This document shows, piece after piece, positions 6,930 to 28,054 of a stretch of DNA of 46,320 nt (its first letter is position 1; each line of letters begins with the position of its first letter). The notes below the pieces were generated by a model, which was not told the origin of the DNA, made no database searches, and saw nothing but the letters and a program-made list of their open reading frames with translations. The position numbers and the translations under genes were made by a program. This DNA comes from a virus (lineage: Duplodnaviria > Heunggongvirae > Uroviricota > Caudoviricetes). The stretch covers positions 1-46,320 of IMG/VR virus record IMGVR_UViG_2645727562_000022. One strand, given 5' to 3'.

Positions 6930-7256
6930 TTACATAATCATTCCTGCGACTACTACCATTTCGATGCCGCTATCTTTCAAGATGATTGCGGTTGAGTTAT
7001 CAACCTTGCTTTCACGCCATTTGCCAGCATCTGACCTTTCAGCTCCGCAATAAGAAAGCCAGTCATCGTTGCAGTCCTTAGGGTCACTGATTCTGACAAG
7101 CACACGAGATAGCGCCTTTTCGATATCTTCATCATCGACAGCGTTTGTGTAATTGCCGTGAGACAATTTCAGATCAGCGACCTCATCTTCGTTAGCGTCA
7201 AAAACGTAGATATCAGTCGATTCCGGTACGTTTTCATAAACCATTAAAACTTTCAT
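6930..7256 (-). CDS. Hypothetical acidic protein (108 aa)
   Basis: ATG at 7256 preceded by AGAGGTG RBS; the ORF-track GTG at 7262 lies inside that RBS. Confidence 0.5.
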   Translation of the reverse strand: MKVLMVYENVPESTDIYVFDANEDEVADLKLSHGNYTNAVDDEDIEKALSRVLVRISDPKDCNDDWLSYCGAERSDAGKWRESKVDNSTAIILKDSGIEMVVVAGMIM

Positions 7257-7276
7257 ATTCACCTCTGTGGCTTGCT

Positions 7277-7303
7277 GCCAAAAGAAGGCCGACTAGGCGG
7301 CCT
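7277..7303 (-). terminator. Rho-independent terminator in the leftward early operon (tL-like)
   Basis: Stem AGGCCG / CGGCCT with loop ACTAGG, followed on the minus strand by TTCTTTTGG; 12 bp from the IS left end. Confidence 0.5.
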
Positions 7304-7377
7304 AGTCAACTTTCTGAATCGCCACGGGTTTAACAGACACCTCAGAGTCATTTAAGATGACTTAAAGAGAGGTGCCC

Positions 7378-7656
7378 ATGAGCGGTAAGCGTTATCCTGA
7401 AGAGTTTAAAATTGAAGCAGTCAAACAGGTTGTTGATCGTGGTCATTCTGTTTCCAGTGTTGCAACACGTCTCGATATCGCCACTCACAGTCTTTACGCC
7501 TGGATAAAGAAGTACGGCCCGGATTCTTCCACTCATAATGAACAGTCAGATGCTCAGGCCGAGATCCGCCGTCTTCAGAAAGAGTTGAAGCGGGTTACGG
7601 ACGAACGGGACATATTAAAAAAAGCCGCGGCGTACTTCGCAAAGCTGTCCGACTGA
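7378..7656 (+). CDS. IS3-family transposase OrfA (HTH)
   Basis: MSGKRYPEEFKIEAVKQV...ILKKAAAYFAK is typical of IS3-family OrfA; ATG at 7378 with GAGAGG RBS (ORF track begins at GTG 7372). Confidence 0.85.
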   Translation: MSGKRYPEEFKIEAVKQVVDRGHSVSSVATRLDIATHSLYAWIKKYGPDSSTHNEQSDAQAEIRRLQKELKRVTDERDILKKAAAYFAKLSD

Positions 7657-8525
7657 GGTACGCCTTTATCCGCGACAACAGCCGTTGCTGGCCTGTTCGT
7701 TTGCTCTGTCGGGTTCTGGATGTCCATCCGAGTGGATTTTATTTCTGGCTTCAGCAGCCACATTCGCAGCGTCACCAGACAGATCAGATGCTGACCGGGC
7801 AAATCAAACAGTTCTGGCTTGAGTCTGGCTGCGTCTATGGTTATCGCAAGATCCATCTCGATCTGCGTGATACCGGACAGCAGTGCGGAGTGAACCGGGT
7901 CTGGCGGCTGATGAAGCGTGCCGGAATAAAAGCTCAGGTTGGGTACCGTAGCCCACGAGCACGTAAAGGCGAAGCCAGTATCGTGACACCCAACAGGCTC
8001 CAGCGGCAGTTCAATCCGGACTCACCGGATGAGCGTTGGGTGACGGACATAACCTACATCCGAACCCACGAAGGCTGGCTGTATCTGGCCGTGGTGGTTG
8101 ACCTGTTCTCCCGAAAAGTTATCGGCTGGTCAATGCAACCCCGCATGACAAAAGAGATTGTCCTGAACGCCTTACTTATGGCGGTGTGGAGGCGTAATCC
8201 TCAAAAGCAGGTACTGGTTCACTCTGATCAGGGTAGTCAGTACACGAGCCATGAGTGGCAGTCGTTCCTGAAATCACACGGTCTGGAAGGCAGCATGAGT
8301 CGTCGCGGTAACTGCCACGACAACGCGGTTGCGGAAAGCTTTTTCCAGCTACTGAAACGCGAACGGATTAAGAAAAGGATCTACGGAACGAGAGACGAAG
8401 CCAGAAGCGATATTTTTGATTATATCGAAATGTTTTATAACAGTAAGCGTCGGCATGGTTCGAGCGAGCAGATGCCACCGGCTGAATATGAAAACCTATA
8501 TTATCAACGGCTCAGAAGTGTCTAG
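7617..8525 (+). CDS. IS3-family transposase OrfB (DDE), expressed as OrfAB by -1 frameshift
   Basis: Slippery A-run at 7617-7623; the -1 frame continues KKSRGVLRKA... into the 274-aa ORF, which has a DDE catalytic triad; the standalone ORF begins at TTG. Confidence 0.8.
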   Translation, partial: KKSRGVLRKAVRLRYAFIRDNSRCWPVRLLCRVLDVHPSGFYFWLQQPHSQRHQTDQMLTGQIKQFWLESGCVYGYRKIHLDLRDTGQQCGVNRVWRLMKRAGIKAQVGYRSPRARKGEASIVTPNRLQRQFNPDSPDERWVTDITYIRTHEGWLYLAVVVDLFSRKVIGWSMQPRMTKEIVLNALLMAVWRRNPQKQVLVHSDQGSQYTSHEWQSFLKSHGLEGSMSRRGNCHDNAVAESFFQLLKRERIKKRIYGTRDEARSDIFDYIEMFYNSKRRHGSSEQMPPAEYENLYYQRLRSV

Positions 8526-8609
8526 ATTATCCGTGGCGATTCATTCCATGCCTTACACTCGTTAAGATGCGAACACATGGAATGTGATATCTCTGTTGCA
8601 ATGCAAATC

Positions 8610-9095
8610 TCATCCTGCATTGGAGAAATCTCCGTGAAGATTTTTAGCGGCTATGCAATATGCTTTATGGGCATCCTCTGGGTTATCAAACACACCAAGA
8701 TGATGCTTTATTCCATTTGCCCGTATTTGACCAACCCACTTACGCTGACGTTTTGAGTAGTAAACTCCTTTGTACCCGCAGCCATTTTTTTGAGCTGACC
8801 TGTTTCTGCTGTTTTCTGCCAGCGTCGCAAGCCTGAGGTTGCAAATTCTGTTGTCTGTGCGGTTACCATTTATGTGATCAATAACGTCAGGTGGCCAGAA
8901 TCCATAAGTAATTAGCCAAGCTAGTCTGTGTGCGAAATATTTTACTCCGTTTATCTCTATAGCAACGTGTCTTGTCATATCCCTAGTCCCTGCACGCTCT
9001 AGCGTTGATCTCTTTCCAAGGCCGGGCTTCCATTTGAACAACCCAGTATCAGGGTTATATTCGAGAAGTGAATTTACCTCTTCTAAATTAACCAT
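8610..9095 (-). CDS. HNH homing endonuclease with AP2 domain (intact)
   Basis: YFAHRLAWL...IDHINGNRTDNRICNLR is the HNH_3 motif, followed by an AP2-like GYKGVYYSKRQRKWVGQI; start overlaps the N stop (TAATG). Confidence 0.8.
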   Translation of the reverse strand: MVNLEEVNSLLEYNPDTGLFKWKPGLGKRSTLERAGTRDMTRHVAIEINGVKYFAHRLAWLITYGFWPPDVIDHINGNRTDNRICNLRLATLAENSRNRSAQKNGCGYKGVYYSKRQRKWVGQIRANGIKHHLGVFDNPEDAHKAYCIAAKNLHGDFSNAG

Positions 9096-26230: not shown

Positions 26231-28054
26231 ATGGACGAACTCGAATCCTACTCGCTAGCCGAGGATGAGGATAAGTGGATAACCATAAATGGTTCCCACG
26301 TCAAAATTGATGAAAATGGAGATGTTGTTGCTGGCGCTGAAGGGAAGATTAATAGCAATAAAGATGAAAAGAAATCAGCCGGGGCAAAACTATCAGCCAA
26401 TGAAAAGTCAGCCATTTCCAGTTACTCAGGTGACAATTTCTTAAAAATAAACTCAGATCTTCGTAAAGGTAAAGATGAAGACCCTGATGTGGCACGTATT
26501 GACTCAGCCATTAGCAAGGGAAGTTTAGAAGGTGGAACGCTTTACCGAGGAATGAGCAGGGAGGACGCAAAAAAACTGTTCCCAGGCGGAGATATTAAAA
26601 AGGGAATGGTTGTTTCAGACCCCGCTTTTCTTTCCACATCTAAAGAAAAAAAAATCGCCGGTATGTTCAGCATCGGCGGTGTAATGCTCCAAATAGAAAC
26701 AAATCAAGGAGACAAGGGGCTGGATGTTACTGGTCTTTCCAGCAACAAGCATGAGGATGAAACATTACTTCCACGCAATGCAAAAATGGAAGTGATTGGA
26801 GTGCATCCTCCAAAATCACCGGGTCAGCCGGTGACAATAAAGGTCAGATACAAAAGCGAGGAAAAAAGACCCGCAATGGACGGGATTACAGAAAGCCTGG
26901 CATTTGACCGCGCTTCAATGCGCTCGTTTGATGGCAACGGCAGGCTTCAGGTTAAGTTAAGCAATATCAGCAAGGCGAATGTCTGCCCCTACTTCGGGAG
27001 AGAGATTCCAGGCGCTGAAAAGCTCGGGTTAGAGCCAGATAAGATTTATCATTTATGGCGACACCCTGATGAACTGAAGAAAGCCGCTGCAACATTCAAC
27101 AATATCCCCCTTTTATCAATCCATACACCTGACTTCCCCGGCGACCCACCACGCGAATATCGCGTTGGCGTAACGCATTCAAATGCAGACTTTGACGGAA
27201 CGTATCTGACAAACGGCTTATCGGTTTGGGACGACTCCGCAATCGCCGGTATCGAGACGGAAGAGCAGGAAGAATTGTCTTCGTCGTACCAATACGTCGC
27301 TGACATGACCCCCGGAGTTACACCGAATGGAGAGCCGTATGACGGCATCATGCGGGACATCATCGGGAACCACGTAGCGCTGGTTGAAAGAGGCCGCGCA
27401 GGAAGCGACGTATTGGTCGCAGATTCATTACCCCCGGAGTTAATGCTCATGAGCAAACGTAAAGCCGCGATTATTCGCGCAACGCTGAAGCCGTTACTGG
27501 CAGCTGATGCTGATTTGGAGGCTGAAGTACGGAAGGCGCTTCTGGCGCTGGATGAAGCCGAAAAAGAAGACGAGAAAGAAAAGAAACCGGCTGAAGACGA
27601 GGATGACGACAAGGACGACGAGAAGAAGAAAACCGCTGACGATGAAGATGACGAAGACAGCGATGACAAAAAGAAAAAGCCAGCCGAAGACGAAGACGAT
27701 GAAGACGACAAAGTCTCCAAAACGGCAATGGACAGTGCGATTCGCTTAGCTGCGGACAGCGCAACCAAACGTGCGGCGGAGAACTTCCGAAAAGTGCGTG
27801 AAGCTGAGCAGGCTGTGCGCCCACTTATTGGCGATGTCGTTGCAATGGACTCCGCTGATGATGTCTACCGCACTGCACTTGAGCAGGCTGGCGTGGATAT
27901 CGAAGGCGTTCATCCTTCAGCCTTCCCTAAGATGGTCAAAATGGCTATCGAGCAGCAGAACAACAAACGCCCTGTCATTGCGCAGGATTCCGCATCTCAC
28001 AGCGAATTTGAGAAAGCTTTCCCGACCGCTGGCAAACTGAAACGAGGTTTCTAA
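26231..28054 (+). CDS. Head scaffold-like protein with an N-terminal ADP-ribosyltransferase (R-S-E type) module
   Basis: Residues about 60-200: [16 protein letters not shown], aromatic-Arg LYR106G, S135-T136-S137, E175-D-E177 in canonical order and spacing; then an acidic KDE-rich linker (res about 440-500) and a scaffold-like C-terminus; sits between head morphogenesis protein and capsid genes. Confidence 0.7.

Follow-up and report, generated by a model that had tools for sequence, protein, structure and literature searches.

An in-phase A_AAA_AAA slip site and the probable -1 frameshift signal of an IS3-family element in a phage-like DNA

The run of seven adenines at 7617-7623 is a correctly phased -1 slip site of the IS3 family and not a variant of the register. 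It very probably belongs to the programmed -1 ribosomal frameshift signal of an IS3-family element (IS51 group, ISEhe3/ISEc14-like), and this signal would be the main route to the OrfAB transposase. The slip site is already known in kind, as a textbook recoding signal of IS3-family elements. Table 1 lists the features; the positions are those of the window (the whole stretch of 46,320 nucleotides that was analysed).

The A7 run is followed by a G at 7624. In the zero frame of orfA (ATG at 7378, TGA at 7654-7656, translation ending ...DILKKAAAYFAKLSD before the stop), the codons around the run are GAC ATA TTA(7615) AAA(7618) AAA(7621) GCC(7624) GCG. The -1 frame, which is open from 7542 (after a TGA at 7539-7541) to a TAG at 8523-8525, reads ...HIKKSRGVLRKAVRLRYAF... 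across the run and continues into the DDE (rve) domain. In a -1 slip heptamer, X_XXY_YYZ, the first base occupies codon position 3 in the zero frame, and this phase allows the tRNAs in the P and A sites to pair anew one base further back. When the 115-nt overlap (7542-7656) is scanned directly, the single heptamer with this phase is the AAAAAAA at 7617-7623. Only six other A or T runs of at least seven bases exist in the 46 kb of the window, and the phase of the heptamer is kept in 59 of the 72 related elements described below; the A7 run is therefore not a product of chance.

The original prediction had placed the A7 run at the same positions, with the codons TTA-AAA-AAA-GCC, and both the sequence and the translation agree. 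It had also recognised an IS3 OrfAB frameshift window, which the structure of the element, the domains and the match of the fusion support, and a -1 frame that joins the DDE domain (KKSRGVLRKA...), in line with the Pfam rve hit and the full-length match to NF033516. What does not hold is the "non-standard register" that it assigned to the run, since A_AAA_AAA sits exactly in the X_XXY_YYZ phase. The string AAAAAAG at 7618-7624 has the phase XXX_YYY_Z and is literally one base out of register; however, the claim that the A-AAA-AAG heptamer is one base off was anchored on G7624, the first base of the alanine codon GCC, and thus on the wrong seven bases. Recomputing the frame, which had been named as the way to refute the reading, returns the codons as they were given, yet the register reading itself proves to be a mis-anchoring. 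The term "minor variant" was overstated, A_AAA_AAA being one of the two predominant motifs of the IS3 and IS1 families (PMC4066793).

A second in-phase motif, A_AAG at 7641-7644 (GCA AAG), was rejected as a shift site: it lies inside the loop of the downstream hairpin with no stimulator behind it, and most relatives have GCC AAG at this place.

From the sequence we infer that ribosomes shift at 7617-7623, and how efficiently. Most ribosomes would read orfA to its stop codon and make the 92-aa HTH protein. In a minority, with tRNA-Lys on AAA 7618-7620 in the P site and on AAA 7621-7623 in the A site, both tRNAs would move one base in the 5' direction and re-pair with AAA 7617-7619 and AAA 7620-7622. 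AGC (7623-7625) would then be decoded next, and translation would go on in the -1 frame to give a 382-aa OrfAB (...DILKK-SRGVLRKA...). The 11-bp hairpin that begins 5 nt after the heptamer would act as the stimulator.

Table 1. Features of the element and of its putative frameshift signal (positions in the window)
Feature	Position	Strand	Remarks
Left target-site duplication, TTC	7312-7314	.	directly outside the terminus
Complete IS3-family element, ISEhe3/ISEc14-like, 1229 bp	7315-8543	+	terminal repeats, near-identical copies
Promoter-like site, TTAACA-17-TAAGAT	7330-7358	+	inside the left end, 5' of orfA; consensus scan alone
orfA, 92 aa, HTH DNA-binding/regulatory protein, zero frame	7378-7656	+	translation; Pfam HTH_Tnp_1, E 9e-20
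orfB frame, -1 relative to orfA, DDE transposase catalytic domain	7542-8525	+	translation; Pfam
Slippery heptamer, A_AAA_AAA	7617-7623	+	canonical X_XXY_YYZ phase; homologous position kept in relatives
Spacer from heptamer to hairpin, GCCGC, 5 nt	7624-7628	+	inside the 4-10 nt rule (PMC4066793)
Predicted stimulatory hairpin	7629-7664	+	11-bp stem 7629-7639/7654-7664, 14-nt loop
Right target-site duplication, TTC	8544-8546	.	directly outside the terminus

The conservation of the site was followed in 80 related loci taken from one-genome-per-species contigs. In 72 of them orfA, orfB and the motif could be located; these loci have 60-100% OrfB identity and range from Enterobacterales to Pseudomonas, Massilia and others. 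The heptamer is A_AAA_AAA in 31 of the 72 loci, where its first base is position 3 of the homologous Leu codon (NTA), and A_AAA_AAG in 28, with an identical start position, so that 59 of 72 carry an in-phase A_AAA_AAR at the homologous site. The A_AAA_AAG elements read CTA AAA AAG GCC and the A_AAA_AAA elements TTA AAA AAA GCC, over the same seven positions; the two forms differ by a synonymous Lys codon (AAA or AAG) in orfA and by Ser versus Gly in the -1 frame. Among the other loci, four have G_AAA_AAG, with the A_AAG tetramer still in phase, one has G_AAA_AAA, with A_AAA still in phase, two have the degenerate heptamer A_AAG_AAG, and the motif is lost in two (AAAGGAG and AAAGGAA). Three loci have A6 in place of A7, one A being missing, and one is a pseudogene copy. 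The A_AAA_AAA form turns up in a number of distinct lineages (Enterobacterales, Agaribacter, Aliidiomarina, Oleiphilus, Methylopumilus, Amphritea and a Nitrospinota MAG), which indicates that the two forms of the heptamer have been interconverted repeatedly.

The three A6 copies (L024:~1418, L026 and L033:~1418) come from Candidatus Pantoea formicae, Pantoea sp. Mb-10 and Yokenella regensburgei (TTAAAAAAGCC). A6 at the slip site puts orfB in the +1 frame, beyond the reach of a -1 shift. These copies are either knock-outs that arose by replication slippage in the A-run or sequencing errors in a homopolymer. No A8 copy, in which the two frames would be constitutively fused, was seen among the 72 related loci. 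The pseudogene copy (L001), on plasmid pECOR29 of E. coli ECOR29, is the closest E. coli copy (96.6% identity); it is interrupted by an internal stop, and one nucleotide is inserted 5' of its slip site (AGAAAGAAG).

The hairpin downstream of the heptamer is likely to stimulate the -1 shift. Folded alone, it has a minimum free energy of -14.6 kcal/mol (z -2.58), and 5 of 200 shuffled sequences fold as well. The same structure is predicted in a longer context, with an unexceptional energy (z -1.0 for 57 nt and +0.5 for 104 nt). The stop codon of orfA falls in the 3' arm of the stem. According to the rules of Sharma et al. for IS3 stimulators, the hairpin should be 17-140 nt long, start 4-10 nt after the heptamer, begin with a G-C pair and be worth at least 7.6 kcal/mol (PMC4066793). 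The predicted hairpin agrees with all four, the spacer being 5 nt long and the first pair being G7629-C7664.

Comparison of the relatives points to the same stem. Across 51 distinct relatives, 94.7% of the cells of the stem are paired, and compensatory changes are seen at four stem pairs (for example, GGCGUAC/GUACGCC becomes GGCAUAC/GUAUGCC, GGUAUAC/GUAUACC or GGUGUAC/GUACACC). The covariation score of the stem is reached by none of 500 shuffles, and controls in which the 3' arm was slid along the alignment have 32-56% of cells paired. RNAalifold recovers the same stem independently and unprompted. The hairpin region codes in two frames, and part of this conservation is therefore a protein constraint. 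A scan of the element against Rfam (E<=1) gave no match to a frameshift-element family.

Other stimulators were considered. An upstream SD-like sequence, GGGA at 7607-7610, was discarded: it is found in the enterobacterial clade only, and elsewhere base 7608, which is position 3 of an Arg codon, is free to vary. A start codon for OrfB like the AUU of IS911 (ATT 7614-7616 in the -1 frame) is not conserved either, many relatives having ATC CTA. For a pseudoknot stimulator of the IS3411 or IS3 type (apical-loop/internal-loop or H-type), whose loop would pair with a segment further downstream, there is a 5-bp H-type candidate (7644-7648 with 7678-7682), which is paired in only 48% of the cells across relatives. 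The loop sequence GCUGUCCG (7644-7651) has a perfect 8-nt complement, CGGACAGC, 210 nt downstream (7874-7881), and this complement is confined to the closest copies. The pseudogene copy from ECOR29 has a matching double change in the loop and the complement (GCUGUUCG/CGAACAGC). The long-range pairing is absent from most relatives, close ones included, and is treated as probably due to chance.

Sharma et al. have surveyed 557 ISfinder entries of the IS1 and IS3 families: 72% of 403 heptamers are A_AAA_AAG or A_AAA_AAA (PMC4066793). They also measured the -1 shift in E. coli: A_AAA_AAA gives 0.41% (0.405) with no stimulator, 0.82% with the stimulator of IS911 and 24.8% with the pseudoknot of IS3, and A_AAA_AAG gives 0.29% (0.291), 4.26% and 39.0%, respectively (Table S3, PMC4066793). 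The standard IS3 motif has been described as "A6G/C/A" (PMC6211511). By analogy with these measurements, one would expect the A_AAA_AAA of the present element to shift at a somewhat lower rate than the AAG form in an E. coli-like host. The alternation between the two forms at one site throughout the family illustrates a synonymous change which, according to the published E. coli values, should lower the efficiency of the shift.

Several named elements can be compared with the present one. IS600, which belongs to the IS3 group of the IS3 family, makes up the E. coli gene cluster A_AAA_AAA_1 and is marked there as a true case of -1 frameshifting, with a stem-loop stimulator (PMC4066793). Compared by description, it resembles the present element in its in-phase A_AAA_AAA and its stem-loop, but it is a different element from a different IS3 subgroup. 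The A-site codon of IS911 is AAG, and its stimulators are a three-way junction and an upstream SD-like element (PMC5009743), whereas the present element has a simple hairpin and no conserved SD. The likeness to IS911 lies in the phase, the Leu-Lys-Lys context and the presence of a downstream structure. The frameshift window of IS911, which we take to be ...ATA TTA AAA AAG GC..., corresponds here to ATA TTA AAA AAA GC.

A programmed transcriptional realignment would lead to the same protein: if the RNA polymerase adds one A, the A8 mRNA (TTA AAA AAA AGC) encodes OrfAB in a single frame, and this OrfAB is identical to the ribosomal product (...ILKKSRG...). The original prediction had listed the run as a candidate for transcriptional slippage, which is a fair caveat, although the comparative data do not favour it. 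In E. coli genes, A7/T7 runs are depleted in all three phases, which has been ascribed in part to transcriptional slippage (PMC4066793), and A_AAA_AAA yields slightly more -1 product than A_AAA_AAG when there is no stimulator (0.405 versus 0.291%). IS1447, an IS3-family element of Firmicutes, makes its OrfAB by slippage on A9, and seven A's are enough in mutants (PMC6211511). Elements of the IS1447 type resemble the present one in that they belong to the IS3 family and have an A-run at the end of orfA, but their orfB is in the +1 frame, their run is kept at 7-9 A's and their hairpin adjoins the run (PMC6211511), whereas the present element has its orfB in the -1 frame and its hairpin downstream, and its relatives have runs of A5-A7. 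Across the family, the codon phase is kept together with a hairpin that starts 5-6 nt downstream, but the length of the run is not: the same site is only A6 (A_AAA_AAG) in 28 relatives and only A5 (G_AAA_AAG) in four. In most genomes, selection against slippage is evident at a run length of about 9 (PMC1088944). The marks of transcriptional realignment (Baranov 2005, IS1447 type), a conserved homopolymer of about nine bases (at least 7-8) and a hairpin adjoining it on the 5' side, are both missing here: the nearest hairpin predicted upstream of the run (7569-7593) ends 23 nt before it. Realignment by the RNA polymerase is therefore decidedly unlikely as the main source of OrfAB, but seven A's in a row are somewhat prone to such slippage, which may add a minor route to the programmed ribosomal shift.

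The change from A_AAA_AAG to A_AAA_AAA in the enterobacterial clade might also have a meaning of its own. OrfAB could be supplied at once by the ribosomal -1 slip and by insertion of an A by the RNA polymerase, and/or the run could be a replication-slippage hotspot that switches copies off. On this last point bear the three of 72 related loci that have A6, in which orfB cannot be reached by a -1 shift. We regard these suggestions as unlikely.

The element that carries the signal looks intact. It begins with TGAATCGCCACGG and ends with CCGTGGCGATTCA, has the 5'-TG...CA-3' ends and falls in the size range (about 1.0-1.5 kb) of IS3 elements. Its terminal inverted repeats are imperfect over 38 nt; the outermost 13 bp are perfect, and this 13-bp sequence has only these two occurrences in the window. 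The TTC duplication fits the range of 3-4 bp of the IS51 group (PMC10425158), which is weak evidence taken alone, a 3-bp match being easy to obtain by chance. The two ORFs have the organisation expected of an IS3 element: they overlap partially, orfB is in the -1 frame, OrfA has an HTH and OrfB an rve domain. The Pfam matches of orfB are rve (E 3e-33), HTH_21, rve_2 and rve_3, and WVTDITY, HSDQGSQY and NAVAESFF can be recognised in its sequence, 35 residues separating the second D from the E, hence DD(35)E. The conceptual OrfAB (7378-7623 joined to 7623-8525, 382 aa) aligns in one stretch with the whole of the NCBIfam profile NF033516 "IS3 family transposase" (1-369/369), with 435 bits for a cut-off of 160. 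The promoter-like site inside the left end may be the promoter of orfA; such matches are no more numerous in the consensus scan than in shuffled sequences.

Public databases hold the exact sequence of OrfA, and its 90%-identity cluster includes proteins named "ISEhe3 OrfA" and "ISEc14 transposase A". The likeness to ISEhe3 and ISEc14 is drawn from these names, and the present element may be an isoform of either or a separate named element. ISEhe3 is tabulated in the IS51 group of the IS3 family, with TG ends and a duplication of 3-4 bp (PMC10425158); the TG...CA ends, the 3-bp duplication and the 0 and -1 phases of the two ORFs here agree with this entry. The commonest enterobacterial relatives of the present element are only 89.8% identical to it in DNA. 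Such copies occur widely in enterobacteria, on plasmids as well as chromosomes; PGAP labels them "IS3 family transposase, programmed frameshift", as a two-piece join over the same 1148-nt span. One place covering at least 80% of the element was found in 188 E. coli records (179 genomes) and 702 plasmid records. The exact 382-aa fusion was not found in the database look-up; at least one residue sets it apart from the nearest annotated fusion. A full-length copy on a Klebsiella variicola plasmid is 99.9% identical, which indicates recent mobility. The flanks joined by a single TTC were compared with phages, plasmids and E. coli genomes, and the 22-nt junction string with viral and metagenome contigs; no match spans the junction, so that the TTC duplication and the recent insertion stand without confirmation by an empty site.

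One may wonder whether this copy of the element has decayed, the A-run having no current role. Some relatives are indeed dead, such as the pECOR29 copy with its insertion and internal stop, the run is shortened to A6 in three loci, and the search for an empty site, which would prove a recent insertion, yielded none. Yet neither frame is interrupted anywhere along its length, the 13-bp termini match perfectly, the 3-bp duplication is present, DD(35)E is intact, and the near-identical Klebsiella copy lies on an unrelated plasmid. A non-functional copy is therefore very improbable. With a programmed -1 frameshift as the preferred reading, the two ORFs are best annotated as a single transposase, with the programmed -1 frameshift placed at 7623, and not as a pseudogene.

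That AAAAAAG at 7618-7624 is a truly out-of-register site, functional in the phase AAA_AAA_G through an unusual slip mechanism, is scarcely credible: it has in its favour the literal match to an A6G string only, whereas six of its seven bases belong to a perfect in-phase heptamer, the A site would hold GCC, for which no re-pairing on AGC in the -1 frame is possible, and the A_AAA_AAG of the relatives lies at positions equivalent to 7617-7623, not 7618-7624. Scans for A-rich slip sites should judge the codon phase X_XXY_YYZ and not the A6G string.

The window is probably a prophage or a phage-like element, judging from the flanks of the IS. The genes that flank the IS, at 6930-7262 and 8610-9095 (minus strand), look phage-like. 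In the left flank, a 46-nt stretch is 95.7% identical to the region beside ral in genomes of Salmonella P22-like phages, and the flank is about 81-84% identical to hypothetical genes located beside Nmad5-family nucleotide-modification genes in E. coli chromosomes. The left terminus of the IS coincides exactly with the end of a terminator-like hairpin (7283-7315, AGAAGGCCGACTAGGC/GCCTAGTCAACTTTCT), which has a T-run on the minus strand. The IS thus lies between the minus-strand gene 8610-9095 and its apparent terminator, which suggests that it inserted next to the hairpin.

Far from the element, an A9 run (26646-26654) is in frame (AAA GAA AAA AAA ATC) inside an ORF of 607 aa (26231-28054). In many bacteria, appreciable transcriptional slippage sets in when a run reaches nine A's (PMC1088944). 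The C-terminal half of the product of this ORF is very acidic and rich in Lys, Asp and Glu.
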